Positions 4,342 through 63,788 of a DNA stretch of 64,000 nt are shown piece after piece. The stretch is from a virus. Positions within the stretch are counted from its first letter, which is position 1. The number at the start of each line of letters is the position of its first letter. The position numbers were made by a program, and so were the translations under genes. Location of the stretch: the IMG/VR virus record IMGVR_UViG_3300022843_000001, positions 32,001-96,000 of that record; one strand, written 5' to 3'. The notes beneath the pieces are model-generated. The model ran no database searches. It saw only the letters and a list, made by a program, of their open reading frames with translations, and had not been told where the DNA came from.

Positions 4342-4532
4342 TATATTGCCTATTTGTTTGTAGTGTAACTATTATAACACAGATAGCATCAATTGTCAAT
4401 CTTTATTTGAAATGTCTATTCAGATACGGCACTTTGCCATCTATTGTTATTATTTTTGTCACTTCGTTTGTGTGATTGTTGGGATGTTCTCTCAATGCAG
4501 GTATTCGGTCTTTGGATAATCGAATCTTTACA

Positions 4533-4763
4533 TTACCCATTATGTTTAACTCCTGTATTGAATTCTTGAGGGCCTTCGGTGGTGAATTCCATACCAGCAA
4601 TATTGCCGACATAAGTTTTACCATTCCACCGCATATGAATTTTGTTATGTGCAATGAATGCATTTAATGATTCACCCACCTTTACATTATCCACCTCTGC
4701 CTCAACCGCTTTATCATTGCGAGTGTTTATGATTATTGCTGTCTTTGCAAAATATGTGCTCAT
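4533..4763 (-). CDS. Hypothetical protein (start at MSTYFAK)
   Basis: ORF with GAG-type RBS before Met18; phage-like composition. Confidence 0.55.
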   Translation of the reverse strand: MSTYFAKTAIIINTRNDKAVEAEVDNVKVGESLNAFIAHNKIHMRWNGKTYVGNIAGMEFTTEGPQEFNTGVKHNG

Positions 4764-4954
4764 AGAGAATTCATCGCTGTGTAACATAATGCAGTTGCAA
4801 ATGCACCTAACCAATGATAAATGTTAAGTTTATACCCACGGTCGTGAATAATCGATCTGATCAAAGTGGCGATAATTACAGGCACCAGTGAAAAGAAAAC
4901 CAACAGAACAACAATGTTGATAATATACGGAAGCAAAATTTCTAATAAACTCAT
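4760..4954 (-). CDS. Small membrane protein
   Basis: Two hydrophobic segments; stop/start overlaps with neighbours. Confidence 0.5.
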   Translation of the reverse strand: MSLLEILLPYIINIVVLLVFFSLVPVIIATLIRSIIHDRGYKLNIYHWLGAFATALCYTAMNSL

Positions 4955-5187
4955 AATTTAATCTCTTTAGTGGATATATCTTTTATTCGTCGAATTCTAA
5001 GATTGATATAATGATTATATTCAAGACCGATCATGTCTCCAATCTCAAGATGCGTCATAAATTTTCTAACACCTTCAGATGTTGTCATAACAAAATCGTC
5101 GGGATACATATCAAAGAACTCTTGGAGAGTTAGTATTTCATAATCTCCTTGATAATCAATGTCATATTTACGGACCTTGAATAACAT
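4951..5187 (-). CDS. Hypothetical protein
   Basis: ORF track; tight packing. Confidence 0.55.
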   Translation of the reverse strand: MLFKVRKYDIDYQGDYEILTLQEFFDMYPDDFVMTTSEGVRKFMTHLEIGDMIGLEYNHYINLRIRRIKDISTKEIKL

Positions 5188-8224: not shown

Positions 8225-9412
8225 TTAACCCTTTACACAAAGCACTTGTTTAATTTCATGTACAATCTCTACCAAATCGGCCTGAGCTGCCATTACATCA
8301 TCGATAGGTTTATACGCACTTGGAGTCTCGTCTATAATACCTTCGTCTATTCTACACTCCACACCACGAACTGCTTCTTCGTGTTGCTGCATAGTTACTA
8401 ATTTCTTCGCTTGGGTTCTGGACATAACCCGACCGGCGCCATGACTACAACTGTGGAAAGATTCCTTGTTTCCCAAGCCTTTAACTATGAATGATCTCTG
8501 TCCCATGCTACTTGGAATGATACCATATTGCCCTTTCTTAGCAGAAACCGCACCCTTTCGAGTAACCCACACATTTTCGTTGTAATGGTTTTCTTTCTGT
8601 ACATAGTTATGATGACAGTCAACAGTCAACTCATCTACCGTAAAAGGTTGTGTATGTTTTTCAAGCACTTCTAAAACATTTTTCATCATCAAAGCACGAT
8701 TCATCTTCGCGAATTCTTGTGCCCAGTCAACGGCTTCGATATATTGATCGAAGTAGGTCGAGTTTTCTGGTAAATATGCCAAGTCCTCGTCTGGCAAAGA
8801 AATAAAATACTTCTCCATTTCCAACTTTGCTTTCTCAATAAAGTATCTGCCAATAGCATTACCCACACCACGACTACCTGAATGTAGCATTACCCACACC
8901 GAATTGTCTGCTTTCTCGATACACACTTCGATGAAATGATTTCCACCACCCAAGGTGCCTAGATGAGCAATATTGTTTGTCTTCTCGACAGGGGCAAATT
9001 CACGCAAATTATCAAAGCCTGAACTTAAATGTTTATTCCAAGTATCGATAACTTCCTTGGGTAATTTCTGGACGTTATGTTTCCCTTGTCCTACAGGAAT
9101 CACCGCTTCAATGTCTAATCTCATCGATTTTAGGTTAAAAGGCAAGTCAGACGCAGTTAAAGACGTTTTAACGGCTTGCATGCCGCAGCCAAGGTCAACG
9201 CCAACTGCAGACGGGATAATCGCTTTTTTGGTGGCCAGAACTGTTCCTATAGCGCAACCTTTACCTAAGTGGGCATCAGGCATAGACGCAATCCATTTGT
9301 GTATGAATGGCATATCAGCAAGGTTCATTAATTGTTCTTTTGTGTTTTCCGCAAAATCAACACCATCACACCAAGCCTTTACTACATGGCCGCGGCCAGT
9401 TAAAACTTTCAT
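8225..9412 (-). CDS. rtcB: RNA 3'-phosphate/5'-OH ligase RtcB
   Basis: PDAH.GKGC.IG, GVD.GCG, GTLGGGNHFIE, HSGSRG.G, HHNY, RKGA, SCSHGAGR, DE.P.AYK. Confidence 0.95.
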   Translation of the reverse strand: MKVLTGRGHVVKAWCDGVDFAENTKEQLMNLADMPFIHKWIASMPDAHLGKGCAIGTVLATKKAIIPSAVGVDLGCGMQAVKTSLTASDLPFNLKSMRLDIEAVIPVGQGKHNVQKLPKEVIDTWNKHLSSGFDNLREFAPVEKTNNIAHLGTLGGGNHFIEVCIEKADNSVWVMLHSGSRGVGNAIGRYFIEKAKLEMEKYFISLPDEDLAYLPENSTYFDQYIEAVDWAQEFAKMNRALMMKNVLEVLEKHTQPFTVDELTVDCHHNYVQKENHYNENVWVTRKGAVSAKKGQYGIIPSSMGQRSFIVKGLGNKESFHSCSHGAGRVMSRTQAKKLVTMQQHEEAVRGVECRIDEGIIDETPSAYKPIDDVMAAQADLVEIVHEIKQVLCVKG

Positions 9413-29015: not shown

Positions 29016-29819
29016 CTATTTGTCACGAATCTTGTTATTCTTTTCTACCGCGGAAGTAAGTACACCGAGCTCGGAACCCATGAGCTTTGCATAAGATAAC
29101 AAAGCGGAGGTGTCCTTGGGGAAGCAATGTCCACCAAATCCACGATCACCATCAGGTCCAGGGACTTTCATATGAGAAGCACCGACTCTAGAGTCTCGTG
29201 TCAGCATATCGGTAAACTGGGGCCAAGTGGTTTTAGTGTTAGTCTTTTTATGAAGTTCGTGAAGTTCATTCATGAAGGTCACCTTGGTAGACAACCAACT
29301 ATTAATTGTATACTTCAGAAGACTTGCGGAAGCAATATCTACCTTAAATGTAGGAACGACCTTTACCCTACTATGGTTAAGATATGCTCTTTCGACAACT
29401 TCGCAGAGCTCGAAATATCCACCTAGTACTTGCATTGGTGGATTACAGAAGTCCCAATGGGCATTGGCTTCGGTGAGAAATTCTGGATTGTATACAATTT
29501 TTAAATTGTAGTTTGAGACCATCAGTCGAAGATGGTCTGGAGTGATCGTACTCTTGATAACAACGATGCCTCGATATTCCAATTGTTCGAGCTGGAATAA
29601 TGTCTCATAAGTTATAGATGCATCCACTTCGCCGTCTTCTCTTTGTGGTGTTGGAAGGCATAAAAATATGATTTGGGGTTGTGCAAGAGCACAGTCTTCT
29701 AAGCTGAGAGTGGTGTGTCTAGGGTCAACTATTAGTTGATCGACATTGACATTAAATCCATGGGACACACTACCACCGACAAATCCTTTGCCGACAATAC
29801 CTAAAGTTAGTTGTTTCAT
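29016..29819 (-). CDS. UDP-glucose 6-dehydrogenase-like (short form, no C-terminal domain)
   Basis: GIVGKGFVG, CLPTP, VIKSTI.P, YNPEFL.E, FGGHCFPKD. Confidence 0.85.
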   Translation of the reverse strand: MKQLTLGIVGKGFVGGSVSHGFNVNVDQLIVDPRHTTLSLEDCALAQPQIIFLCLPTPQREDGEVDASITYETLFQLEQLEYRGIVVIKSTITPDHLRLMVSNYNLKIVYNPEFLTEANAHWDFCNPPMQVLGGYFELCEVVERAYLNHSRVKVVPTFKVDIASASLLKYTINSWLSTKVTFMNELHELHKKTNTKTTWPQFTDMLTRDSRVGASHMKVPGPDGDRGFGGHCFPKDTSALLSYAKLMGSELGVLTSAVEKNNKIRDK

Positions 29820-39873: not shown

Positions 39874-40899
39874 TCAGCCCTCGCATGCTTCACAAGAGCC
39901 ACTTGATGCTTTTACCCCCGATTCAGATCGTATATAATACAAAGATTTTATGAAAGGATCTTTGAATGCCATTTCATGTATTTTTGAAATTACTTCTTCT
40001 TTCTCGTCAGCACTAAAAAATAAGTTAATAGATTGTGCCTGATCGATATGTCTTTGACGCGCCGATGCCAATCGAATAATCGATTCTTGGTTGATTTCAA
40101 ACGCCGTCTTGAAAACTTCTTTCTGGTGATCATCAAGCCATTCAACATCCTGAACTGAACCGTTATCATCTATAATAGCATTTATAGTCTTCGGATTAAA
40201 AACACCTTTCTCTTTCATAACTGCTATGAGTACCGGATTGATTCTGTCAACTTCGCCAGCACTAGTTCTTTGCACGTATGCATTTTTGTATATAGGTTCA
40301 ATTCCTTGAGATACAGAGCCACATAAAATTGCCGAGGACAAATTAGGGGCAATTGCCATGCGGTGAGTGTTACGCAAACCGTAACCAACGCACCATTCCG
40401 GTTCACCTAGGGTTTCTGCTAACCAACGGCTAGCACGCTCTGAAGCTGTTGCCAGTTGTTTAAAAATTGAGTTGTTGATCATATGCGCTTCCATACTTTC
40501 AAAAGCAATGTTTTTCTGTTGTAAATAAGTATGAAAACCTAATGTACCTAAACCTAACGCTCTACTCTTTTCTGTGAAGCGAACTGCCTTTTCTAATCCA
40601 CGAATCTTTTTGCCTTCTTGGATAAATTCTTCGGCCACGCAGTCAAGAAAAACGGTTGCGTCAAATATAACTTCGTCTGGGTCTTTCATATTATCATATT
40701 GAGATAGGTTGATTGACGAAAGAACACAAGTAAAAGTAACATCATCAAAGCCTTCTCCTGTATCACTAGAAGTTGCATTCAATGTAATTTCAGTACAATT
40801 GTGTACTAATATATCATTTGCAAAGAAGTTATGATTATTCTCTACTGTAAGATCAAACACCGCTTCTTTATTATCTAAATATTCTATTGTTAAACTCAT
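39874..40899 (-). CDS. nrdA: Split intein C-fragment (34 aa) + ribonucleotide reductase alpha C-terminal part
   Basis: ...FDLTVENNHNFFANDILVHN|CTEI restores NLCxEI; AIAPN.SS, SLYY.R, C-terminal CEACEG. Confidence 0.93.
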   Translation of the reverse strand: MSLTIEYLDNKEAVFDLTVENNHNFFANDILVHNCTEITLNATSSDTGEGFDDVTFTCVLSSINLSQYDNMKDPDEVIFDATVFLDCVAEEFIQEGKKIRGLEKAVRFTEKSRALGLGTLGFHTYLQQKNIAFESMEAHMINNSIFKQLATASERASRWLAETLGEPEWCVGYGLRNTHRMAIAPNLSSAILCGSVSQGIEPIYKNAYVQRTSAGEVDRINPVLIAVMKEKGVFNPKTINAIIDDNGSVQDVEWLDDHQKEVFKTAFEINQESIIRLASARQRHIDQAQSINLFFSADEKEEVISKIHEMAFKDPFIKSLYYIRSESGVKASSGSCEACEG

Positions 40900-41654
40900 A
40901 TTTTCTTATTCCTATGATTATTGCCGTCAAGCAAGGTTAAATCTGTTATTTTAAATGTTTCTATTAGCAACGTTTGTATATTTTCGTTCCATACCGGTTC
41001 TCTATATTTTCCTTTCAAACTCTTAGGTAGCGGTTGACCATAGACTTCGACAAAGTATCTTTTAGTCATGGCCATACTCCATCTTCCATATTTTTTAAAT
41101 ATTATTTTACAGGCCTCGAGTATATCTTCATTTGATATACCAGTAAATCTTGGGTTTTTTTCACCAGTGACAGAAGCACCAGTTTTTAATTTCCATTCAT
41201 CCGATCTTTTCATTCCTACATGAAAAAACACCCATTTACCAGATAGTACATGTGGATGATCTTTTTTAACTCGACCAATTCGAACTCCAGTAATAGAATC
41301 TTTTACAATTAAAGTTCCGGTGTGTCGTTTCGAAACTTCTGCTGCAATGATCTTGCGAGCTGCAGAATACGCTCTAGATGATAATCTTTTTCCCTTTGAC
41401 ACAACTCTACCCATATTGATCAAAGCCTGGTTTGCTTTATATCTGCCCTGCCCTGTTGCTAATTTAGCGAGCAATACATGAGCAATCCAATGTTCTTTTT
41501 GTGTCAGAAGTATCATATTAAAACTTTCATCTGTACCGCCAAATGATCTTGGTAGTATGTGATGATTTTCGTATTTAAAATCGCGATCTTTTTTAGATCG
41601 ACCTAGGTTTCGTCTGCTTTCTATTAAATTATTGTACAAGTTCAGATAGTTCAT
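40896..41654 (-). mobile_element. HNH homing endonuclease between nrdA halves
   Basis: YENHHILPRSFGGTD...N...LT..EH..AH. Confidence 0.85.
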
Positions 41655-41658
41655 TTTT

Positions 41659-41693
41659 AATCCTGTTTAGTACTATTTATACTAAACAGGATT
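41659..41693 (-). promoter_or_regulatory. RBS-sequestering hairpin containing a late promoter
   Basis: 14-bp perfect IR AATCCTGTTTAGTA/TACTAAACAGGATT; TATAAATA at 41674-41681; AGGA RBS in 3' strand. Confidence 0.8.
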
Positions 41694-41723
41694 TCCAAAC
41701 ATAAAGATGTTAATGAATAGAGA

Positions 41724-42878
41724 TTACCCTATTACAAGTTCGTCATCTTCAAGCAATTCTTTCGCCATAACATATCCACGATTTTTTGTAAATATTTTAT
41801 GATCTGGAGTACATTTAATAGATTTTCCAGTTTCATCATCCGTGATTTTCATAATAGTAGCGTTAGGGTTTGTTTCCGCACCATCAGTAATTGTTTCCCA
41901 ATTGCCCAATTTATTCTCAACATCATACGACCAGATTTTCCAATCATCGAGATTATTGTTATAATGATTTTCAATGAAATGTTGCAAGGTACAAGATTTA
42001 ACACCAGAAACATCTCCTTTAACTGTTATAATAGTATCTCCAGTCATACATAAATTTGATGCATATACTTGCAGACCGCGATCCTTGTACATTGCTGGGC
42101 TTTGTCTGTTTACTTTATCAACAAAGAAGAAATATCCCTTACCTGTCAACATTTTAATCTTCAATGCTTTCTGATATCGGGCAACTGCATCTTCCTCACC
42201 TTTGTCTAAACGTTCGATAAAATCGTCACTTATATTCCAACCAACATTCACATCGTCAGGCATTGTTTCTACGTGCTGACACATCTCCCAAAAATCACCG
42301 CTTTCGATAGGAATATATCCTGCCCATGAACCCCGTCTAGTACTTCCTTGAGAAACGTCTCGAGACATCTGCACAAAGTCCTTGAATACAGGTACAACAC
42401 CACTTGCGGCGCCACCACCTTTGATATGCGTACCTCGTTCACGAATAGCGCCAAGATACGAACTTGTACCAAAACCGTTCTTTGAAAGGAGAGCACCTTC
42501 TTTCTGGGCTTCATAGAAATTATACACCGAATCACCAACGTAACTTCCAGAACACGATACAGGCATACCACGAGTCGTTCCCATATTTGCCATTACTGGT
42601 GTACTTGGAGCAAGAAAACCATTCCACATCAAATCGAAGAATTTAGTATTCCATTCTTCGCTCGATTCGCCCATGTGCTTCGAGGCGGTTTTTGCGATAC
42701 GTTCAAACGTCGACCGAACATCCGGTTCAGATTCCGTTTGATATTTTTCCTTAAACATTTGCCACCCAGGAGTGGTGTAGTAATCGGGAATTCTGCCAGA
42801 CGCCTGTAACTTCTTACGTTCCCTGCCCAGCTCTTTATAAATTGATACGTGTTCTTCTACCATTATACTTGTCCCCAT
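41724..42878 (-). CDS. nrdA: Ribonucleotide reductase alpha N-terminal part + split intein N-fragment
   Basis: PSTPVMANMG, VSCS, Q.STRRGS.A.Y, ...YASNL|CMTGDT, CTPDHKIFTKNRGYV.AK.L. Confidence 0.93.
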   Translation of the reverse strand: MGTSIMVEEHVSIYKELGRERKKLQASGRIPDYYTTPGWQMFKEKYQTESEPDVRSTFERIAKTASKHMGESSEEWNTKFFDLMWNGFLAPSTPVMANMGTTRGMPVSCSGSYVGDSVYNFYEAQKEGALLSKNGFGTSSYLGAIRERGTHIKGGGAASGVVPVFKDFVQMSRDVSQGSTRRGSWAGYIPIESGDFWEMCQHVETMPDDVNVGWNISDDFIERLDKGEEDAVARYQKALKIKMLTGKGYFFFVDKVNRQSPAMYKDRGLQVYASNLCMTGDTIITVKGDVSGVKSCTLQHFIENHYNNNLDDWKIWSYDVENKLGNWETITDGAETNPNATIMKITDDETGKSIKCTPDHKIFTKNRGYVMAKELLEDDELVIG

Positions 42879-47104: not shown

Positions 47105-47923
47105 TTATTTGTTTATAATTGCAACGTCTGTTAACCATTTTCGGATTTTCTTGCCATTACTTTCTACGATCACGTAGTTAGAACCGGTCACGATTATCAG
47201 GCCGACTTGATCCGTATTATCAAGAAGCACGTAGTCTCCTTTCTCAAACAAGTTGCCTTCTATGTAGCTTTCTCTTGTTTCAGAAACTGATCTTAATTGA
47301 ATATGCTTTCGGAAAGTATAGGATTCTTTAAGTCCCATGCCTGAACGAACAGCATTGAATAATAATTTACCGTCTTTGAACGCCTTTGGCAGTCCTTTTT
47401 GAAACATTTCAAAATCGTTTGCTTCAGCGGCAGCACGCATCTTAGAGGCGGACATTCCACTTACTTCGTCGCTGTCAGGATCTCTATCACCAGCAGAAAC
47501 AACATTCAGTGTCTCGAAGTTATAAAATCCGTGCCGACCTTTTACGCCATTGTACTTATTTATGATTTTATCGAACTCTGCTACTCTGTCAGAACCAACA
47601 ACCATGGTTGCCTTAATGTATCCTTTATCAAACAAGAACACCATAACATCGAAGACATTTCGTATTTTCTTATCTAAAATGATGTTTCGTGCATGTTTTG
47701 GAAACATCTTCCTCATGAACTTTACTTTGGACACGTAGTCCAAAGGATTCTTCTTGGGATCATTAGAAGAAGACGCAAATACGAAATAATCCGCTTTACT
47801 ATTTACAGTTGACAACTTTTTAATAAGTTTTTCGTGCCCAGTTGTAGGTGGGTTAAACCTGCCAAAAGTAAAGACTGCTTCGTTCGTCTCTTCTGTGATG
47901 TATTGACTAAATGATTTAATCAT
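47105..47923 (-). CDS. Cytidylyltransferase-like (HIGH superfamily) protein, putatively packaged
   Basis: FTFGRFNPPT.GH, VVGSDR..EF, SAG.RDPD, GMSASKMR. Confidence 0.8.
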   Translation of the reverse strand: MIKSFSQYITEETNEAVFTFGRFNPPTTGHEKLIKKLSTVNSKADYFVFASSSNDPKKNPLDYVSKVKFMRKMFPKHARNIILDKKIRNVFDVMVFLFDKGYIKATMVVGSDRVAEFDKIINKYNGVKGRHGFYNFETLNVVSAGDRDPDSDEVSGMSASKMRAAAEANDFEMFQKGLPKAFKDGKLLFNAVRSGMGLKESYTFRKHIQLRSVSETRESYIEGNLFEKGDYVLLDNTDQVGLIIVTGSNYVIVESNGKKIRKWLTDVAIINK

Positions 47924-48813: not shown

Positions 48814-50064
48814 TTATCTTGTGGGAGAATCCCATCCTTTGAGTATTTCGTCGCTAAAATTTGCGTAGGAGAAACTTAACTGATCGACCAACTTAAAAGC
48901 ATTACCTTTTGCGTGATCAATCGCTACAAAACCTTCATGACCAGTAACTTCAAATCCATTCTTCGTTCTTAGGAACGTGGACATATTGTCAATCTTATTC
49001 AACTTTCCAACTATGATCAATTTTACATCACCTAATAGATTTTGCAATTCAAAAAGATCGATAAGTTGTTTTTTGTTACTATCAGAGAAAAACTTCATAA
49101 AGTCGTCACGGGCAATGATCTTTCGTTCTTTACCTGCATCCGATTTTAATTTATCTATCTCTTTCTGATATTTATTATTTATATATGCAATTAGACCAGT
49201 AACATGCTTTTTAGGGTCGGAAGACATTGTTCCGCCGCGGATAAAACTGTTTGCATATGTCTCAATGGTCTGTGCAAGATTAGGGGTAGTTTCTATTTGT
49301 TTTAAAGTTTTGGATGATACTTTCTGAAACAACTTGCCGGCCTGACTCAACTTCTTGTCAATCGAATTAGTTTCTTTCTTGGTTAACGATACACTGCCAC
49401 TCAGATTCTTAACGTTAGCATCATCGAACCAAACGTTTTTCGTTTGAGTGAATTGTTTTGCATCAAGTTTAAAGGATGCATTAAGGTCAGCAAATGTACT
49501 ACCTTTGTATTCCGTATGAAGCACGATGCCCATCTTGGACCCTTGAATTTTCTTTGCAAGTTTAGAATCTGTTGGTACTGCATATAAAATTGTGTTTGGG
49601 TGAAATGTCAGATAATTCTCGCCATCTATCTTTTGTGTTTTCAAGTCGCTAGCGCTATACATCATATCGCCCTGAAAGATTCCTTTTGGATTTAACTTTG
49701 GAAGTTCTTTGAGCGCAATTTTCATTTTTACATTTAAGTCAGCACTTGATATGTCGGCATCAATGTCAGCGTCAGTCATATAAAACTTAGGAGTTTTTGC
49801 AAATATACCTTTCTTTGCCACGAAGAATTTTCCAGCATCAGGTTCGCCGCTTGGTACTTGACCAAAGAATATGGCAGGGGCGCCGTCCCATTTCATCGTC
49901 ACATCTATTTTAGATGTAGATGTTCCAGCCAAGGTGTTTCTTAAATCTCGCAGAGATTCTATTGCTTGTCTTGTACCTTTAACACCTTTATACAGAACTA
50001 GATTCTGTATGTGCTGCATGTGAGCATTAACTTCTTCGGTTACATAAGATTTGAAGGATATCAT
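48814..50064 (-). CDS. Conserved T4-like protein (DUF6267-like) with ligase-type nucleotidyltransferase motifs
   Basis: TMKWDG, IFQGD, HEGFV, AFKLV; CTS-like N-terminus. Confidence 0.6.
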   Translation of the reverse strand: MISFKSYVTEEVNAHMQHIQNLVLYKGVKGTRQAIESLRDLRNTLAGTSTSKIDVTMKWDGAPAIFFGQVPSGEPDAGKFFVAKKGIFAKTPKFYMTDADIDADISSADLNVKMKIALKELPKLNPKGIFQGDMMYSASDLKTQKIDGENYLTFHPNTILYAVPTDSKLAKKIQGSKMGIVLHTEYKGSTFADLNASFKLDAKQFTQTKNVWFDDANVKNLSGSVSLTKKETNSIDKKLSQAGKLFQKVSSKTLKQIETTPNLAQTIETYANSFIRGGTMSSDPKKHVTGLIAYINNKYQKEIDKLKSDAGKERKIIARDDFMKFFSDSNKKQLIDLFELQNLLGDVKLIIVGKLNKIDNMSTFLRTKNGFEVTGHEGFVAIDHAKGNAFKLVDQLSFSYANFSDEILKGWDSPTR

Positions 50065-56030: not shown

Positions 56031-56096
56031 ATATTTTTACCTGTAAATTGTTTGTTAAATGATATTATAACACAAACTGACAGGGTTGTCAACCTA

Positions 56097-57572
56097 TTAA
56101 TATCCATTAATTTCTTTATAAAGCGCAAAAGACATACTACCCATAGCGATGTTGTGTTTAGCCGAGATCATTACAAGATTCGAAAATTCTGTCTTTCCAC
56201 CCCTAGAGTGAGCAACAAGGTGACCGCCGTGAGCATCTTCCATTTTTAATGGTTTTCCATCTACTGCACATTTATAACCTTGTTCCGCCAGTTTGGATTC
56301 TCGCATTGTCTTCGAAAAGAATCGTCTTGTGTCTTTGATTGTAATCAATTGGGTAAAATCAAGATATTGTGTAAACCAACCCAAACATGTTTTCATTCTT
56401 TCGGCATCATCATATTCACCCAATGTATCTTTGAACTGAAGACCTATTGTCTTGTTTTGATTGTAAGGAGATACCTGATTCTCAGGCTCTTCCATATCAG
56501 CAACAGGTTTGAAGAATTTTTCATCCATTACTTTTTTCAATGCATCAAAATACGCCGCATCATCGATTATTTTGAATGAGCCGAACTCCTTTTCCATGTA
56601 CATCCAAACCCTCTTAAACAACTCAAATTCTCTTTTACCAAGACCGCTATTCAATTTCATCTTTTTGACTTCAGCCATTCTTTTGACATGATCCAAGGTC
56701 TTATGTACCTTTTTCTTTAAATTATCAACCTTTTTAAAGTCCAAATCTTCATCAGAATACATCTCTAAAAGTTGTTTCTCAGCGGCTAAACCAATACCTC
56801 CTTTATCATCACTGTGATATCTATAGTATATTCTAGCAACAATTTCATCTATTTTGAGTCGGCTTGGGTCGAATGTCAACCAAGCCAGATTCTTAACACT
56901 ATAATCGAAAAGTGGGTGACACGTTGAGTTAATGCCCGCAACCAATCGCGCAGTTTCTCTAACCGCGTTGGCGATTGCAATGTCTCCATAAGAGTTAAGA
57001 GTTTCTTGTCTGTTAACTGGAGTCGTCTTATTCAATGTTCTGAATATATCACCAATTTCACTTGGGGTTAAGTTAACATATACGGCAAAAAGCAAAGGAT
57101 ACTTCAAGAAATCATCTCTTTCTTCGTCTGAATAATCCACCCAAAGTTTTCCATCAACATGAAACTGGTTATTCACAAAAGCATAAATATATCTTTTTCT
57201 GTTGCCGCCATCAATACTTGCGAATGTGTAAGAATCAGCCGGAACTAGACCAGTACCCTTCTGAGAGATTCTCTTTCCATCGAACTGATAAGGTTTAAGC
57301 GCGGATTTTTTTGGAATTTTGTGAATAGTGATCTGACCGATATCATAACCTTTCATCATCGTAGAGATAATACCTTGCGCCTTCGAAGGTGTTTTTTCGG
57401 TACCTTCCAATTTCGGAGCAACGTCTAAACGCTGACCAACAGGTTGAGTATCGATAATGTTATACAGTAATAAGTATTCTTTAACCGTGATGGTTTCACG
57501 AAAGAACTTAAGTCCTCTTTTTACATAAGGTTTGTTTTTACCCATTCCTAATAATTTATTCACATCAGACAT
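56097..57572 (-). CDS. DUF262 (ParB/Srx-like) + HNH protein, GmrSD-like nuclease
   Basis: IDGGNRKR, IF..LN, C-terminal C..DG...H.VAHSRGG.T...NL...H.N. Confidence 0.7.
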   Translation of the reverse strand: MSDVNKLLGMGKNKPYVKRGLKFFRETITVKEYLLLYNIIDTQPVGQRLDVAPKLEGTEKTPSKAQGIISTMMKGYDIGQITIHKIPKKSALKPYQFDGKRISQKGTGLVPADSYTFASIDGGNRKRYIYAFVNNQFHVDGKLWVDYSDEERDDFLKYPLLFAVYVNLTPSEIGDIFRTLNKTTPVNRQETLNSYGDIAIANAVRETARLVAGINSTCHPLFDYSVKNLAWLTFDPSRLKIDEIVARIYYRYHSDDKGGIGLAAEKQLLEMYSDEDLDFKKVDNLKKKVHKTLDHVKRMAEVKKMKLNSGLGKREFELFKRVWMYMEKEFGSFKIIDDAAYFDALKKVMDEKFFKPVADMEEPENQVSPYNQNKTIGLQFKDTLGEYDDAERMKTCLGWFTQYLDFTQLITIKDTRRFFSKTMRESKLAEQGYKCAVDGKPLKMEDAHGGHLVAHSRGGKTEFSNLVMISAKHNIAMGSMSFALYKEINGY

Positions 57573-57680
57573 AATATAGACTCTTCAATTAATTTATACA
57601 TGTATTATACCATAGGTGTGGTATAATGTCAACAACTGATTTCAGTTTTCTTATAACTTGTGGTTGTATCGATATAACTA
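57573..57680 (-). repeat. Early promoter cassette copy driving DUF262-HNH gene
   Basis: -35 57627-57632, -10 57604-57609, full leader, near-palindrome 57663-57678. Confidence 0.85.
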
Positions 57681-58619
57681 ATAGTTATTACGGTAAATGT
57701 ATTCTATTGCTCTTTCTGCTTCCAATTCAAAAGGTCTTTGGCCGTACCAGTTTCCAGTCTCTAGATCGATTTGACGGCATAATTGTGCAATTTCATGTGA
57801 TGTTATAGGGTACTCCATTCGTACAGCATTCGCGGCTATCTGAACCATTAAGGAATACATTTTGTGATACCAGCCAGTCCCTGATATTTCCTTGTATTGA
57901 TCAATCATGTACTTCTTGACGAACTTGCAGTCATGAAAAGACGTCCAAGACACTTTAGTTTGTTCCTGATTGTCCTTTCGTTGTTGTATAATCATTTCCT
58001 GCATAGCAGCAGGTAAGCGCTCGAAGAAGTTGCCACCGACTTTTCGTTCTGTAGGCGGCATAGGGTGTTTCTTTATAAGTTCGTCAACATCGAGTACAGC
58101 GCCAGTGTTTGTAAAGATAAAATTATTAGCACCATCATAACACGCAGGAATATAGTACATACGACTAAAATCTTTAACTTGTTGATCTCCCATTGAACCG
58201 AAAGTGGTGTTGAGAGCATACCAAAAGTCTCTAATGTTTTCCGTCTTGATGATATTTTTAACAGGAAACACCAACCTGAATTTAGGTTTGTCTTTAGTAC
58301 TTGAAGCTGTGCTATAACAAATATAGTAATAAGCACCAAATCTATTATGAAGTTCATCTTTTAAGTCTCCTTTACATTCATGATCATCTATGTCGAGCGC
58401 GGCCCATGCGCCCCATCCGGTAACATTTTTGTTCGCTCTTGTTGTTCCTTCAATATAAGTAGCAGGAGATATCAAACAAGCATTTTTCTTTCCAGCACAC
58501 GGTACCTTACTTAAACCATACAACAGCGACTCAAATTCAGCAAAGGTTTTAAACTCTGCCAATTTGTGAGTCTTGTTGTCATATAAATCATTAAATATGG
58601 TGAATGCAGTATCAGACAT
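57678..58619 (-). CDS. Primase-polymerase (AEP/VirE-N)-like protein
   Basis: ALDIDD, Y.T.S.....PKFRLVFP, D...D.SR.YY.P. Confidence 0.55.
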
Positions 58620-59568
58620 ATAGCTTGAAATATTCTATAGTTTTCTCAAGGCCCTGATGTAAACTTACTTTTGGTTCCCAATCTAATTCTTTCTTAGCTT
58701 TAGTTATATCTGGGCAGCGTTGCTTAGGATCATCGAGAGGAAGGGGTTTATTTACGATTTTAGATTTAGTGTCAGTCATCGCAATTACCACCTCGGCCAG
58801 TTCACGTATTGTAAATTCTACAGGATTGCCAAGATTAAAACAAGGGTTGTTTAAATTTACATTTGTATTCATTAAACTAACAAGACCGTCAACCAAATCA
58901 TCAACATATTGGAATGATCTTGTTTGAGTACCATCTCCATATATTGTAATGTCTTCACCACGAAGTGCCTGCATTATAAAGTTTGACACCACTCGCCCAT
59001 CAAGTGGGTCCATTTGTGGCCCGTAGGTGTTGAATATTCTAGCAATCTTCACCTCAGTCCCGTATGATCTGTTATAATCCAAACATAAAGATTCTGCGGC
59101 ACGTTTACCTTCGTCATAACAACTACGAATACCATTTGGATTTACATTACCAAAATATGATTCTGGTTGCGGAGTGATGCTTGGGTCTCCATAAACTTCA
59201 CTGGTAGATGCCTGAATTATAGGACATTTATTTGACCGAGCTATTTCTAGGACATTTATCATGCCGTAGACATTCGTTTTCATTGTGTGTACAGGATCGT
59301 TTTGATATGCTGGAGGTGAAGCAGCACAGGCTAAGTTGAATATCATATCAACAGACATCATAGAATAAGGGTTTATAATATCGTGTTCAACCACAGTGAA
59401 GGGCATACCTTTCGCTGTATCCGAGTTTGGATTCAAATGCTTGATATTAACCATTCTGCCGGTTTGAAAATTGTCTAGACAAATGACCTCATGACCGGCG
59501 CCCAACAATCTTTTACAAAGATGGCCGCCTATAAATCCTGCGCCGCCTGTTACCAGTATTTTACTCAT
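58612..59568 (-). CDS. UDP-glucuronate decarboxylase (UDP-xylose synthase)
   Basis: [74 protein letters not shown]. Confidence 0.9.
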
Positions 59569-59857
59569 CTTCTACATCCACGTAGCGTAGCAGAGTATCT
59601 TCAAATCGATCAAGTTGTGGAAACCAAATAGACTTAGTTTTATGTGTCATAGGTTGTTCCATTCTTTCTGCAAATAATTGATAGTCTTCTTCACATCTAA
59701 AACGTACCCTTACTATACGATGCACTCCGGCCTCGTCTCGTTTACCACTAGAATCATGAACATACTCAGGCATGCCATCCCAATCTAATGGCATGGATTC
59801 TTCTTCTTGTCCAGTATTGACAAATAAACTGTTTACTACAGGTCTTTTAACGGCCAT
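59561..59857 (-). CDS. Conserved partner of GREB1-like glycosyltransferases
   Basis: W.GMPE, V.F..EED...F, TKSIWFP. Confidence 0.55.
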
Positions 59858-59923
59858 GGCCTGATATTCCTCATTTAATTAGATTATAATCTATTATAAC
59901 ACAAAGAGATGGTGTTGTCAACC

Positions 59924-60775
59924 TTAATCAACCTTCGGTTCTTCTAGTCTGGTTAATTCCATTCCGTAGTTATCAACACCTTTTTTAATGTTAAGGCCTT
60001 CTTTCTTGATTAATCGGTTATTCTCGAAAGATCGATAGTCCACATGATGATGCCACCGGCCGTATTTTTCCACAATCTCTACAACATCTGGGTGTTGATC
60101 ATACAAAGACTTGGCAAACTTGAATCGATTGTCTTTGTCAGCGCCATAGACTTCATCGGTATTACCACCTTTCATGCTCAGAGTACCTGTTTTACCGCAA
60201 AGAAAAGCATTGAACAATATAGTACAATCCCCGTCTTTCAACACTCTAAGACTTAGATCAGTGTCCTCATTATATTTGCCGCGCCACCGGTGAACAGTAT
60301 CGTTGGCAATTAACAAACAACTGTAGACGCGAGTGTTTGCCAGATATGCTGGACGAGTAGTAGATCGCTTTGGTATAAAATAGAAATATTGCATTCCCGC
60401 AATCTTGACATTTTCATATCGATCTGTAAAATCCTCTGCGGCACGAAAAGTTGTGCCAGAAGTTACACGGACTCGTTTGTTCTTGTTGAATCGATAAAAA
60501 CATTTAATGTTGTCGTCAAGAATCCAGTGGCGTTCATGGCCTTCAGATATACTGTGATCCCAAACCCAATTTCTAGCAGGTATACTTCCTTGCCCTAGAT
60601 TGCTGAACGGCAACACCAATATTTTAGCAGGGTCAATAACCGCAGCATATTCATCATACTCCTGAGGCTCGATTACAATCCTGTAGGGAACCTTCATCAG
60701 TTCCAAAGCATCTGAAGTCTGGCGAGATTCCCACCGACCCTTCGATATAATATAGACAGGATATTTCGGGTTCAT
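59924..60775 (-). CDS. GT-A fold glycosyltransferase (GREB1/TET-associated-like)
   Basis: YP.YI.SKGR, EPQE...Y, G..PARN..W, W.LDDNI, YSCLL, RG.YNED.D, GGN. Confidence 0.75.
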   Translation of the reverse strand: MNPKYPVYIISKGRWESRQTSDALELMKVPYRIVIEPQEYDEYAAVIDPAKILVLPFSNLGQGSIPARNWVWDHSISEGHERHWILDDNIKCFYRFNKNKRVRVTSGTTFRAAEDFTDRYENVKIAGMQYFYFIPKRSTTRPAYLANTRVYSCLLIANDTVHRWRGKYNEDTDLSLRVLKDGDCTILFNAFLCGKTGTLSMKGGNTDEVYGADKDNRFKFAKSLYDQHPDVVEIVEKYGRWHHHVDYRSFENNRLIKKEGLNIKKGVDNYGMELTRLEEPKVD

Positions 60776-61164
60776 TTATAATCGCCCAATAAAGGTAACA
60801 GATTTGGTTCAGAATAATCCTCTCCTTTCAAAATCTTACCATCACTTCGATATATAGGATTGCCGAATTGATCCAATTTTGACATATTAGAACGTTGAAC
60901 TTCATTAAAGGTTAAGTCTAGAGGTATACCGTAGGTATGGCCTGCACCGTATGTCACATACAGAATATCAGTTAAGGCATCCGCTATCTCAACCATATCG
61001 TCATCGAGCACCGCCGCCTCTAATTCTAAGAGTTCTTCCCGTATCAATTCGATGCGAAGCAAGGCCTCGGCTTTAGTTGGAAAAGCCGGAAATGTTCGTA
61101 CAGGTTGCCCAAAGGTTTCCATGAAACGCCCTACTTTTGCAAAGTTACTTTCAGAATTACTCAT
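60772..61164 (-). CDS. MazG-like / all-alpha dNTP pyrophosphohydrolase
   Basis: LI.EEL.EL..A, E.ADAL.DILYV.YG, V..SNMSK. Confidence 0.85.
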   Translation of the reverse strand: MSNSESNFAKVGRFMETFGQPVRTFPAFPTKAEALLRIELIREELLELEAAVLDDDMVEIADALTDILYVTYGAGHTYGIPLDLTFNEVQRSNMSKLDQFGNPIYRSDGKILKGEDYSEPNLLPLLGDYK

Positions 61165-61226
61165 AATTATCTTTTCCTGTTTATACATGTATTATACACT
61201 AATTATTAGTGTTTGTCAACAACTAT

Positions 61227-63728
61227 TTACATAAAGTCAAGAAGACTCGTGGTTGGTTCGATTTCCCAACCTATGGCTGTCAATATAGGCAATATGGCGT
61301 TTGTAAATGATTTTTCAAACTGCGTATTATAATCTATGTGTCTATTCAACTGAAGTTCTGGTGGCAAATAATCAGGATATGATATCACATTTTCTCTGAT
61401 AGGATTAGGCACCTTTAGATAACAGAACTTTATCTTTTCACCATTCTTGGCCAGATCGTATTCTTTTAATCCGCGGTCATTAATATGGTGATTATAAAGC
61501 AAAGCACCTCTGACATGGATAGGAGTTCTTTTTCCGTATATCGTAAGATTGTTCTGAAACTTGCCGATATCACTTAATCCACGAGGAAAAGAAATGTCTT
61601 CAATAGGCAGGGTGAAGAATTTCGTCTTGAACTCCGCAATTGATTTTTGTGTTTTTTCTTCTGATCCAGATATAATGACCTTGAACATAGATTTTAGCGC
61701 TTCACGACAAACCGCAGGAGTGCTTGATTTAATTGCCTCGATACCCATAATTTTCATCTTAGGTTCTGCATATTGAACACCTTCGCTGTTGTGTACATTC
61801 AGTATATAGCGTTTCTTCGCAGTCCATATACCAATATCGGCAATAACTTCTCTTTCCATAACCATACGATTTTCATAAGCATCAGCATTGGTTGCCATTC
61901 TAGCATATGATTGTGCTATCATAGGTTCAAATTGATCTTTGCACATTTTATCAATCAACTCAACAGTCTTTGCTTTATCTTCACCTAAACCAAGTTTCTT
62001 AACTAAAGGCCCGAAGTTTAAATAATTAGAATCTGTATCAGCGGCCACAACATAGTCAACATCAACAGAATCTACAATCCGATTCATAAACTTATTGAAT
62101 GCTTTATCGGCCCAACGAACTGCAAGTTGACCAGACAAAGTAATTGCTTCTGCTATACGAACATCGTAATGTCTGAAATGTCGATTACCCATAGCACCAT
62201 ACAAACTGTTCATAAGTATCTTGATTGACATTTGCTGATTGTCTAAAATAGAGATAGCTTTTTCTAATCTAAACACTTCCTGTTTATCCGCTTTATCTAC
62301 ATTCTGCAATAATTGCTGATTGGCCAACATCGCCTTCTTGATTTCTTTTCGCTGTGCATAATAATCTACGATGATCTCTGGGATTATACCTCTTGAATCC
62401 TTGGTAAAATGAGCACCGTTAACTGCCATAGAAGTGTTTGGGTGTACATTAATAGGTTGTTGTTCGTCCAAAAATAGATCAACATCACAACCTCTGGTCG
62501 TTGGGTCAAGAATAGTCTCGGGAGACATATTAAACTGTGTGATAATAAGAGGATAAAGTGAAGCCAAATCGAATGAAACAATCCAATTGTGAAGTCCAAC
62601 TTGCACAGGTTTGACATAACCACCAACAAAGGGAATCTTCGCTTTGCTTGTCTTGGGTTGCAGTACAATGTTTCTATCATGGAGCTTTCTGTATATAATA
62701 GCATCCCAAATTGCTGTTGTACCCATTGTGTCCTGATAATTCACACCGCCTCGATAGGCCATGGTCATTGCAAGCGAGATCAATCCTAATTTATCTTCAA
62801 TGCGGTTAACAAGTTCAACGTCTTTGATGTTGTAGTCAATAAACAACTGAAAGTTTTCCGTATAAAGACCATGCAAACCTTTGTATTCCTCATAAGAGAT
62901 CTTTCGTTCACCAAGAACAACCGACGCAATATGATCTAACTTATAAGATTCCTGAGCGCCAAGAGTATTCAATGTGAACTTTTTAAATAGCTCTAGATAA
63001 TCTAAGGATGCTACACCTGTAATCTCCCAAGTTTGTTGCTTCTTGCCAAATATATTTACATCTCTTGGAGATATAAGACCCCAAGGAGATAATTTCTTGG
63101 CAAATTCTTCACCAAGTACTCGCGTTATCCTGTTAACCAAATATGGTATATCATAAAACCGAGTGTTCCAACCAGTAATAACATCCGGTGTATTAATTGG
63201 AGACGACCAATGTGAAACGAATCTCATTAGCATATTTGCTTCGTCTGAGCATTGGTGATACTCTACGTCTTTACGTCTATTATCATATGCTTTCATGCCC
63301 CAGACATAATATCTATCTTTTTGCCATAATGCAATAGATATAATTCGATTCGCCGCTGTGTCTGGCGCTGACCACCCATCATCATATTCAGTTTCAATGT
63401 CGATATTAGCAACATTTATCTCGTCCCGATTGAATGATGTTTTGCCTGGGTATTGTTCCTGAATGTGTTGAACAATATAGTTTTGATTGCCGTATACTTC
63501 GAAGTTAGGGACGTCCTTGTATTGATCAACAAAATCCTTTGCTTCTCGCATGGAGTCGAATTTAATAGGGGAAACGTCGATCCCATGAAGTGATTTGTGA
63601 GAACCGTCACTGTCAGGGATATACAGTGTAGGTTTAAACTTTACTCGTTTCTGATCGCGGTGACCGTCTTTATAACCACGATAAAGCAGAGAATTGCCGT
63701 ATCTGGCTACGTTGGTGTAATATCTCAT
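61227..63728 (-). CDS. gp43: Family B DNA polymerase
   Basis: DIET, GWN...YD.PY, YKLD, YN..D, SFDLASLYP, K..MNS.YG, DTDS, KKRY, G.E..KSSTP. Confidence 0.97.
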   Translation of the reverse strand: MRYYTNVARYGNSLLYRGYKDGHRDQKRVKFKPTLYIPDSDGSHKSLHGIDVSPIKFDSMREAKDFVDQYKDVPNFEVYGNQNYIVQHIQEQYPGKTSFNRDEINVANIDIETEYDDGWSAPDTAANRIISIALWQKDRYYVWGMKAYDNRRKDVEYHQCSDEANMLMRFVSHWSSPINTPDVITGWNTRFYDIPYLVNRITRVLGEEFAKKLSPWGLISPRDVNIFGKKQQTWEITGVASLDYLELFKKFTLNTLGAQESYKLDHIASVVLGERKISYEEYKGLHGLYTENFQLFIDYNIKDVELVNRIEDKLGLISLAMTMAYRGGVNYQDTMGTTAIWDAIIYRKLHDRNIVLQPKTSKAKIPFVGGYVKPVQVGLHNWIVSFDLASLYPLIITQFNMSPETILDPTTRGCDVDLFLDEQQPINVHPNTSMAVNGAHFTKDSRGIIPEIIVDYYAQRKEIKKAMLANQQLLQNVDKADKQEVFRLEKAISILDNQQMSIKILMNSLYGAMGNRHFRHYDVRIAEAITLSGQLAVRWADKAFNKFMNRIVDSVDVDYVVAADTDSNYLNFGPLVKKLGLGEDKAKTVELIDKMCKDQFEPMIAQSYARMATNADAYENRMVMEREVIADIGIWTAKKRYILNVHNSEGVQYAEPKMKIMGIEAIKSSTPAVCREALKSMFKVIISGSEEKTQKSIAEFKTKFFTLPIEDISFPRGLSDIGKFQNNLTIYGKRTPIHVRGALLYNHHINDRGLKEYDLAKNGEKIKFCYLKVPNPIRENVISYPDYLPPELQLNRHIDYNTQFEKSFTNAILPILTAIGWEIEPTTSLLDFM

Positions 63729-63788
63729 ATGAATCCATAATTAAGTGGGTAAACCCATTATATCATAATAATGGGTACTTGTCAATGT

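Follow-up and report, generated by a model that had tools for sequence, protein, structure and literature searches.

A putative TAGT–p98 DNA glycosylation module joined to a UDP-xylose synthase in a T4-like salt-lake phage

Why would a T4-like phage encode a UDP-xylose synthase only a few genes away from its DNA polymerase? The question is raised by a 64,000-nucleotide stretch of viral DNA (the window), which belongs to a complete, terminally redundant phage genome of 198,785 bp from a salt lake. An earlier note, made from the letters of the window alone, had placed five genes here, and all five are present on the minus strand: the gp43 family B DNA polymerase flanking the island (61227–63728; PHROG 262, E = 0; PF00136 and PF03104), a MazG-type NTP pyrophosphohydrolase, a glycosyltransferase of the TAGT family, its small partner p98 and a UDP-xylose synthase (UXS). 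Beyond UXS lies a gp61-like DNA primase (57678–58619, minus strand; PHROG 9765, E 7e-50); its start overlaps the end of the UXS gene (58612–58619), so that the two may be translationally coupled. The suggestion that the genes beside gp43 form a DNA-modification locus is borne out by the position of the TAGT module. It lies between uvsX and gp43, where T-even phages have their DNA-modification locus, in synteny with ggt and gene 42 (gp42), which occupy the equivalent site in T6.

The promoters predict when these genes are expressed. Three early sigma-70-type promoters on the minus strand, each matching the consensus at 12 of 12 positions, precede gp43 (63757–63785; TTGACA-17-TATAAT), the MazG-TAGT unit (61191–61219) and the p98-UXS-primase unit (59893–59921; with a TG extension). 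No late TATAAATA box was found within 52–64 kb. Judged by these promoter sequences, the island genes are early rather than late. The UXS gene overlaps p98, and both are in one predicted early transcription unit, which includes the primase.

The transferase gene itself (59924–60775, minus strand) encodes a GT-A glycosyltransferase, presumed to be a DNA xylosyltransferase. It had been described as GREB1-like, and indeed proves to be a core TAGT/GREB1-like GT-A enzyme, scoring 148.9 bits against PF20691 (curated cut-off, 27.5 bits) with a match that spans the whole profile, positions 1–205 of 205. A DxD-type motif (D87-D88-N89) and an ED motif (E170-D171) are invariant across 41 sequences, and a natural TAGT fusion of 66% identity, modelled with pLDDT 92.7, matches the GT-A enzymes ColGalT1, TarP, SpsA and ppGalNAcT. 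TAGT matches 25 phage records, none from a Shewanella or Escherichia phage. The function of solitary TAGTs has been termed undefined (PMC13216743). Members of this clade (50–71% identical) are repeatedly fused to family A or family B DNA polymerases and to UDG domains. TAGT-PolA fusions account for about 30 of the 120 longer homologues, among which are also fusions with a 3′-5′ exonuclease and UDG, with UDG alone and with Bet/RecT, as well as a PolB-p98-TAGT fusion. All these partners are DNA enzymes, with no structural or membrane protein among them, and in unrelated phages the neighbours of TAGT are replication, recombination and packaging genes. With fusions to PolA, PolB, UDG and ParB_N domains in the clade, the link of the transferase to DNA is stronger than the earlier note could see. 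From these fusions and the synteny with T6 ggt we infer that TAGT probably moves a sugar onto a DNA-linked acceptor.

The partner, p98 (59561–59857, minus strand), is a 98-residue protein without a family match in Pfam, PHROG or NCBIfam, predicted to dock onto TAGT as a mini-domain (W-x-G-M-P-E-F ... KTKSIWFP); its N-terminal tail carries the motif NSLFV. That the transferase has a conserved partner was a sound observation: p98 has 381 relatives and adjoins TAGT in 64 (tblastn) or 75 (HMM) of 80 IMG/VR loci; among loci from bacterial genomes it does so in 69 of 80. This genome and eight small TAGT phages have just two gene families in common, TAGT and p98. The two occur as fusions with p98 at either end of TAGT; in other loci the gene directly upstream of TAGT encodes a ParB_N-p98 fusion, and all three parts also occur joined in one protein, ParB_N-p98-TAGT. 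Modelled alone, p98 has nearly no secondary structure (pLDDT 77); a natural p98/TAGT fusion is predicted as a single compact body (pLDDT 92.7, pTM 0.91). Standalone p98 tails bear clamp-binding-like QxxLF/NLF motifs, the pattern Q.{1,2}[LMI]F being present in 15 of 105 tails vs 1.2 ± 1.1 in shuffles, and this short motif suggests that the tail may bind the clamp. Phage or prophage DNA carrying the module has been binned with Mycoplasmataceae, CPR bacteria, Firmicutes, Bacteroidota, Proteobacteria and one archaeal MAG. Among cultured phages, it is carried by Aeromonas phages Aeh1 and 65, Vibrio phage henriette 12B8 and Tenacibaculum phage PTm1. As far as sequence comparison can tell, TAGT and p98 are a self-contained unit, a mobile two-gene module.

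The case that the short-chain dehydrogenase/reductase (SDR) of the island makes UDP-xylose from UDP-glucuronate is a convincing one by homology. The 318-residue protein (58612–59568, minus strand) was rightly recognized as a UDP-xylose synthase: it matches human UXS1 (4gll, 2b69) with E 1e-99 and 337 bits over residues 3–315, the next SDR type reaching 154 bits. It has the GxxGxxG NAD site, the Ser/Thr-Tyr-Lys triad and the Glu and Arg characteristic of UXS. In the alignment with 4gll and 2b69 these segments, TSEVYGD, YDEGKR and QTR-FQYV among them, are identical or almost so, and a 14-residue segment and QTRSFQYV are likewise kept. No other SDR epimerase-family gene is present in the genome.

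Where the UDP-glucuronate would come from is less clear-cut. The gene proposed as its supplier (29016–29819, minus strand) is real and encodes a UGDH-like protein of 267 residues (PF03721 and PF00984), but it is not a full UDP-glucose dehydrogenase. The N-domain is shortened (PF03721 profile positions 73–175), the central domain retains the catalytic Cys (GFGGHCFPKD), and the UDP-binding C-domain, PF03720, is found neither in the protein nor anywhere else in the genome. Rather than the three-domain architecture of UGDH, the protein is truncated and aligns only to residues 75–298 of the 450-residue 3gg2. Lacking the UDP-binding domain, it is a candidate supplier of uncertain activity. In nine related loci, UGDH-like homologues do adjoin a TAGT-linked UXS or other SDR.

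The MazG-like gene had been counted as part of the modification module, a role that comparison does not support. Its product (60772–61188, minus strand) is an all-alpha NTP pyrophosphohydrolase of MazG/PRA-PH type (PF01503, E 3e-19, 69.7 bits), and its stop codon overlaps the TAGT start. The gene neighbours TAGT in T4-like relatives only, and the best solved relative of the protein is the dUTPase-type DR2231 (E 1e-9). The genome encodes a dCMP deaminase and ThyX and has no trimeric dUTPase. The MazG-like protein is probably a dUTPase/dCTPase-like house-cleaning enzyme, one that alongside dCMP deaminase and ThyX would suit an ordinary supply of dTMP.

DNA sugar modifications in the literature cited here all use a hydroxymethyl or hydroxyl handle made by a dedicated enzyme. 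The window had been seen to contain no base hydroxylase or hydroxymethylase, and this now holds for the whole genome. The search outside the window for TET/JBP or thymidylate-synthase-like genes, which had been proposed, yielded no thymidylate-synthase-like hydroxymethylase or hydroxylase (PF00303) and no TET/JBP enzyme (PF12851), either in the complete 198,785 bp or in 24 related viral contigs, nine of them at least 90% complete. T6 gp42, the positive control for PF00303, was recovered at 56 bits. Neither α-GT nor β-GT (PF11440, PF09198) was detected in the genome or its relatives, in searches run without a positive control. Both the T-even set for hmC glucosylation (dCMP hydroxymethylase with an α- or β-glucosyltransferase) and a genomic association of TAGT with an enzyme making 5-hydroxymethyl- or 5-hydroxypyrimidines are therefore missing here, and a route ending on a modified base, as first envisaged, has no basis.

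Taken together, these observations suggest to us that TAGT and p98 would form the core of a two-gene module for glycosylating DNA at the replication fork or behind it. TAGT would be the GT-A catalyst, p98 would pack onto TAGT by its C-terminal mini-domain, and the QxxLF/NLF-type motif of the p98 N-terminal tail would probably hook the sliding clamp. In other phages the same role might be played by fusion of p98 to a ParB-type DNA clamp domain, or of TAGT to a DNA polymerase. In this phage the module, located at the T-even locus and presumably transcribed early together with the primase, appears to have been joined to a phage UXS, with the truncated UGDH-like gene elsewhere in the genome, so TAGT would draw on UDP-xylose and put a pentose on phage DNA, where it would presumably blunt restriction and CRISPR nucleases. 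Since a transferase at the T-even locus, a docking partner and the phage's own UXS come together, the phage DNA is probably decorated with xylose. To the whole reading, replication-fork glycosylation of DNA with a pentose derived from UXS, we assign a probability of about one half. Palindromes are mildly avoided in the genome (e.g. GATATC, O/E 0.58), which counts against DNA glycosylation; such avoidance is not necessarily expected in a fully shielded genome.

On the sugar, one could argue that TAGT-p98 glycosylates DNA from a sugar nucleotide common in the host, for example UDP-glucose or UDP-GlcNAc, as it would have to in the many phages whose module comes without any sugar-nucleotide gene, while UXS serves another end, be it a second, unrecognised transfer step or the draining of host UDP-glucuronate. 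Of 80 loci, 18 have UXS or another SDR adjacent to TAGT; the remaining 62 have no nearby sugar-nucleotide gene. TAGT is 60–70% identical across loci with or without such a gene, and none of its alignment columns sets the UXS-linked enzymes apart, so nothing in the sequence points to a pocket specific for xylose. Furthermore, some relatives (L073 and L069) have a second transferase, a GT-B, beside UXS or another SDR, whose product could feed the GT-B instead. In the genome studied here, however, TAGT is present in a single copy and no second glycosyltransferase, including any GT1 or GT2 family member, was detected genome-wide. UXS overlaps p98 within the same early transcription unit, and in L013 and L014 it directly follows TAGT on contigs with no other GT. 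Moreover, UXS proper sits at four separate places on the TAGT tree, having joined TAGT at least four separate times. We regard a host sugar as the unlikely choice.

On the acceptor, the target might be not DNA but some protein or RNA that belongs to the replication or information machinery (sliding clamp, polymerase subunit, host factor or tRNA), glycosylated as a take-over or anti-defence device, with the p98 tail and the ParB and polymerase fusions only delivering the enzyme to it. GREB1, a eukaryotic relative within the family, attaches O-GlcNAc to a protein (PMC7968844). The phage has no base handle to offer, and a universal host range needs only a universal target, for which a clamp or tRNA also qualifies. 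On the other hand, the acceptors of characterised phage GT-A enzymes are DNA-linked (T6 ggt; 10.1101/2023.12.21.572611), fusion partners such as the phage polymerase, UDG and ParB_N are typical of DNA-acting enzymes, and the gene holds the position of the T-even DNA glucosyltransferase, all of which makes a protein or RNA target distinctly improbable. Xylose on a virion or host-surface glycan, whether for seroconversion or for capsid or fibre glycosylation, is very improbable, even though other phages carry UXS-like genes without TAGT and TarP, a wall-teichoic-acid transferase, is among the closest solved folds, as are protein glycosyltransferases: the genes have early consensus sigma-70 promoters, share a unit with the primase and lack a late promoter, the module occurs in DNA binned with wall-less Mycoplasmataceae, CPR bacteria and both Gram-positive and Gram-negative hosts, and the fusion partners are DNA enzymes, so the cell-surface alternative raised by the earlier note loses its appeal.

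How, then, does the proposed DNA glycosylation by TAGT-p98 compare with known systems? The ggt of T2/T6 shares with TAGT the PF20691 family, the GT-A fold, the position between uvsX and gp43 and early expression alongside replication genes. T6 ggt has been reported to act on glucosylated hmC DNA (PMC13216743). However, it is a marginal PF20691 member (35.8 bits vs 149 here) without pairwise similarity to TAGT, and no p98-sized gene is annotated alongside it, as far as annotation goes. It adds a second glucose to the glucosyl-hmC produced by gp42 and α-GT, both absent from our phage, and T6 uses host UDP-glucose, making no sugar nucleotide, whereas this phage carries UXS. Phage GT-A enzymes mined as TET-associated DNA glycosyltransferases add sugars to 5hmC in DNA (10.1101/2023.12.21.572611). 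By description, these enzymes are similar (R...DDD...ED active-site motifs, and mined as the group after which PF20691 is named), sometimes paired with a sugar epimerase and neighboured by polymerase, ParB, terminase and methyltransferase genes (PMC8256090; 10.1101/2023.12.21.572611). Yet they need a C5-methyltransferase and a TET-like dioxygenase, or a thymidylate-synthase homologue, neither of which accompanies the TAGT-p98 clade in complete genomes, and the sugars known to be transferred by them are hexose, HexNAc and heptose, with no pentose. About 65% of GT contigs, lacking such partners, were set aside in that work as less likely DNA modifiers (10.1101/2023.12.21.572611).

A pentose on phage DNA is already known from T4-like phages: arabinosyl-5-hydroxy-dC in RB69/Mosigvirus and a deoxypentose (putatively xylose) on cytosine in Shewanella phage Thanatos, where the modification shields from restriction and Cas nucleases (PMC6024577, PMC13390438, PMC12838424). 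A Uxs route to the sugar donor was expressly considered in the RB69 paper. Like our phage, RB69 and Thanatos are T4-like; their DNA carries a pentose, and they encode activated-sugar synthesis. They differ in having a thymidylate-synthase-superfamily 5-hydroxy-dCMP synthase or hydroxymethylase, which this phage lacks, other transferases (Aat-type, TH1_060) and a donor made via a kinase and a nucleotidyltransferase (TH1_063, UDP-xylose pyrophosphorylase) instead of a UXS decarboxylase. The pairing of a base-modifying enzyme with a DNA-clamp-type partner also has parallels, since ParB-like proteins activate phage DNA base dioxygenases, including those acting on thymidine (PMC13229309), and T4 α-GT binds the gp45 clamp (PMC13216743). 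Here the corresponding partner would be the ParB_N-p98 fusion or the p98 tail with its clamp-binding-like motif; unlike in the dioxygenase systems, the enzyme is a glycosyltransferase and the adaptor, p98, has no Pfam entry.

A bolder proposal, which we advance tentatively and consider somewhat doubtful, is that a replisome-tethered TAGT-p98 may put a sugar, here xylose, directly on a canonical base or another universal DNA position, with no handle at all. If true, such handle-free sugar transfer would be a new DNA-modification chemistry, carried by a two-gene cassette moving among phages of nearly all bacterial phyla.

The TAGT under study, a PF20691-family GT-A glycosyltransferase and presumed DNA xylosyltransferase (59924-60775, minus strand), belongs to a T4-like phage with a G+C content of ~36% and a 198,785-bp record bearing direct terminal repeats. 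The window spans bases 32001-96000 of that record. The phage has no close deposited relative: searched by megablast, the region shared only a 57-bp polymerase match with known phages. The minus-strand gene order is gp41 helicase, a 127-aa gene, uvsX, a 491-aa gene, a gp61-like primase, a 318-aa SDR (58612-59568), p98 (the 98-aa TAGT partner, 59561-59857), the 283-aa TAGT, a 138-aa MazG/PRA-PH pyrophosphatase (60772-61188) and gp43. T6 shows the matching order gp41, gp40, uvsX, ggt, gene 42, imm, gp43, and therefore the TAGT block occupies the classical T-even DNA-modification locus, in agreement with the earlier note, which stated that T4-like phages keep DNA-modification genes beside gp43. 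Five perfect early promoters (TTGACA-17-TATAAT, 12/12 matches, all on the minus strand) precede gp43 (63757-63785), MazG (61191-61219), p98 (59893-59921), the 491-aa gene (57604-57632) and uvsX (56064-56092). Five such promoters in 8 kb are far above the background of consensus-like matches, and the late TATAAATA box is absent from 52-64 kb. Since MazG overlaps TAGT, p98 overlaps the SDR gene and the latter overlaps the primase gene, the promoters and overlaps together define two early transcription units, and a replication gene, the primase, belongs to one of them.

Several other genes in the window deserve brief mention. The 491-aa early gene between uvsX and the primase (56097-57572, minus strand) has a DGGNR/IFRTLN-like N-terminal part and a weak HNH-like C-terminus, and is missing even from the closest relative (L006). 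We considered a GmrSD-like nuclease and rejected it, as there was no Pfam DUF262, PADLOC or PDB match; Pfam gives only a weak Endonuclea_NS_2 match (E 0.009). The nrdA gene is split in two (39874-42878, minus strand); the junction ends match intein-splicing domains, and a 252-aa ORF separates the two parts. Also on the minus strand are an RtcB RNA ligase (8225-9412), a 272-aa protein that weakly resembles a cytidylyltransferase (47105-47923) and a DUF6267 protein (48814-50064).

Judged by its sequence, the 318-aa SDR is a UDP-xylose synthase (UXS), as had been proposed: it matches human UXS1 over the whole length with 337 bits (E 1e-99) compared to 154 bits for the next SDR type, and it keeps the UXS signature segments, including QTRSFQYV. 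It is also the sole epimerase-family SDR in the genome, which means that the phage has no UDP-xylose 4-epimerase of its own to convert the product to arabinose. The proposal that a UDP-glucose-dehydrogenase-like gene (29016-29819, minus strand) supplies UDP-glucuronate fared less well. The gene retains the catalytic Cys motif, but it lacks the UDP-binding C-domain, which is absent elsewhere in the whole genome too. The MazG-like enzyme, previously counted as part of the DNA-modification set, probably does not belong there. It adjoins TAGT only in T4-like relatives, and we therefore rejected it as a conserved module member; its nearest match is Deinococcus DR2231, a dUTPase-type all-alpha enzyme. 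No trimeric dUTPase was found in the genome, which encodes dCMP deaminase and ThyX. T4 gp56 is a dCTPase-dUTPase giving dUMP for dTMP synthesis (Petrov et al., PMC2993671), and by analogy ordinary dUMP/dTMP supply would explain the role of MazG.

TAGT itself, the only glycosyltransferase detected in the genome, is a core PF20691 member (149 bits, against just 36 bits for T6 ggt), and D87-D88-N89 and E170-D171 are invariant among 41 of its relatives. Its sequence matched no solved structure, and the fold of a TAGT-p98 fusion model gave only generic GT-A matches (TM 0.3-0.4). Its partner p98 belongs to no known family, and ESM Atlas gives only unnamed viral clusters for it. An exhaustive search identified 381 relatives, including fusions missed by a word-index search of longer proteins. 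They come in four forms: small stand-alone proteins, fusions at the TAGT N- or C-terminus, ParB_N-p98 proteins of ~210-225 aa encoded directly upstream of TAGT, and a ParB_N-p98-TAGT triple fusion. p98 adjoins TAGT at 64 of the 80 IMG/VR loci by tblastn and at 75 by HMM, as well as at 69 of 80 bacterial-genome loci. When the gene content of this genome was compared with that of eight TAGT phages, all small (29-44 kb) and most of them complete, TAGT and p98 were the only families common to all nine, indicating that the pair is a self-contained mobile cassette. Cultured phages with TAGT-p98 include Aeromonas Aeh1, 65 and phiAS5, Vibrio henriette 12B8 and Tenacibaculum PTm1. In cultured bacteria, ParB_N-p98 and TAGT sit together in prophage-like regions of the Pantoea stewartii ATCC 8199 chromosome (L148), Chryseobacterium (L172/L173) and Acidobacteriaceae KBS 96 (L182), while a Marivivens region (L159) has a p98-TAGT fusion in place of ParB_N-p98. 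At the Pantoea locus, the one at which Pfam assignments were checked, the genes for the small and large terminase subunits directly follow the pair, and a GT9-like gene and a methyltransferase immediately precede it.

Modeled alone, p98 is predicted to be almost without secondary structure (pLDDT 77), whereas in a natural fusion whose TAGT is 66% identical the p98 part reaches pLDDT 94-97 and the whole protein pTM 0.91. These models point to p98 as a docking piece of the TAGT enzyme. Its tail may have a further role. Among the N-terminal tails of 105 stand-alone p98 proteins, 15 contain Q.{1,2}[LMI]F (1.2 +/- 1.1 in shuffles) and 30 contain [QNSDKE][LMI]F (7.9 +/- 2.7 in shuffles), an enrichment in both cases; N-(N/S)-L-F-V-x-T-G-Q-E-E is common to a subfamily including p98 of this phage. 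The bacterial beta-clamp motif is QL[SD]LF, and T4-type polymerases have clamp-binding tails. The p98 tail motif resembles such motifs and might represent a putative clamp tether, in which case fusion to ParB_N or a polymerase would be an alternative way to hold TAGT on DNA.

What argues for DNA as the target is the company TAGT keeps. Longer homologues of this clade are 50-71% identical, and about 30 of the 120 listed are fused to a family A DNA polymerase. Others among those listed include 3'-5' exonuclease plus UDG, PolB-p98-TAGT, UDG alone, ParB_N and Bet/RecT, and further partners are a radical-SAM domain, an FkbM methyltransferase and a GT1 domain. Individual natural fusions (L126:665-3463, P0158, P0160, P0179, P0165) comprise p98-TAGT-PolA, TAGT-UDG-exonuclease-PolA, PolB-p98-TAGT and TAGT-radical SAM; a Cys cluster, CEDCGLYKNC, is present in the UDG-like domain of P0158. 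Fusion to radical SAM hints that the sugar or base undergoes additional chemistry. In unrelated phages, TAGT neighbours ERF, SSB, YqaJ, a PD-(D/E)XK nuclease, primase-polymerase, primase-helicase, clamp loader and terminase. There are also precedents in the literature: T6 ggt works on DNA containing glucosyl-hmC and T4 alpha-GT binds to the gp45 clamp (PMC13216743), GT-A enzymes mined from phages as TET-associated add sugars to 5hmC in DNA (10.1101/2023.12.21.572611), and ParB-like proteins serve as activators of DNA dioxygenases in phages (PMC13229309).

The acceptor is more puzzling. To our knowledge, every known phage DNA sugar pathway first installs a handle, that is, a hydroxymethyl or hydroxyl group receiving the sugar. 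The earlier note saw no hydroxylase or hydroxymethylase in the window, and the same holds well beyond it: neither a thymidylate-synthase-superfamily enzyme nor TET/JBP was found in the genome or across 24 related viral contigs by a search that recovered T6 gp42. In Aeh1 and Kuja all matches were high-scoring and resemble ordinary thymidylate synthase. Aeh1 and 65 are listed without genes 42 and 56 (Petrov et al., PMC2993671), and we found no literature report on DNA modification of either. The marks of a DNA enzyme without a handle-making gene imply either a hidden handle source or direct DNA glycosylation. That TAGT-p98 acts without a pre-installed handle, for example directly on a canonical base, seems to us less likely than not. 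A 69-kb phage contig (L028/L030) has a distant ThyX-like ORF (4469-5047), 25% identical to ThyX of this phage, ~0.8 kb upstream of p98-TAGT; a flavin-dependent ThyX paralogue of this kind is a conceivable handle source. Palindrome avoidance in the genome is mild yet present, which does not fit the DNA-glycosylation reading well, although as a proxy for shielded DNA palindrome or restriction-site avoidance this mild was uninformative. The alternative of cell-surface glycosylation is unlikely on host range: DNA carrying the module has been assigned to Acidobacteriota, CPR bacteria, Mycoplasmataceae, Firmicutes, Bacteroidota, Proteobacteria and one archaeal MAG, which demands a universal target and rules out a cell-wall polymer. 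On balance, TAGT-p98 quite probably acts on DNA.

The case for xylose comes from the genes around this core. An SDR lies beside TAGT at 18 of 80 loci, and UXS proper, 54-67% identical, turns up on four separate TAGT tree branches (this phage with L005 and L006; L036 and L037; L013 and L014; L073). At L073, UXS is directly followed by the same truncated UGDH-like gene, and at eight other loci a UGDH-like gene lies beside a different SDR (in two, with one small gene between). In other T4-like relatives the same island holds a phosphomannomutase-like gene, a cupin, a small nucleotidyltransferase, a GT4 transferase and an SDR. The island genes thus form a variable sugar-donor workshop around a constant TAGT-p98 core. 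No TAGT alignment column separates UXS-linked from other TAGTs as a xylose-specificity residue would. We put the probability that this phage xylosylates its own DNA at about one half. FkbM-family methyltransferases (PF05050) adjoin TAGT or are fused to it (L019:670-1320, L087:6865-7581, P0201, P0249), and their recurrence suggests that in some phages the transferred sugar is methylated.

Sugar-coated DNA is among the main phage escapes from restriction enzymes and CRISPR nucleases, and it has yielded epigenetic-sequencing tools such as T4 beta-GT. TAGT-type enzymes that glycosylate phage DNA are already known, and a pentose on the DNA of T4-like phages has likewise been described (PMC6024577, PMC12838424, PMC13390438). 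In the literature searched we found no description of a phage UXS at a modification locus, of the p98 adaptor, of polymerase, UDG or ParB fusions of this TAGT clade, or of the clade being independent of handle-making enzymes. A phage UXS at a modification locus would represent the Uxs-type route whose existence the RB69 authors postulated without finding it. Solitary TAGTs of undefined function occur in 288 of 753 phage genomes (May 2026, PMC13216743). The clade described here is very widespread and highly conserved, and in its genomic context TAGT looks in every respect like a DNA enzyme. Its p98 adaptor, ParB and polymerase fusions and recurrent UXS link provide concrete, testable parts for the question of what solitary TAGTs do.
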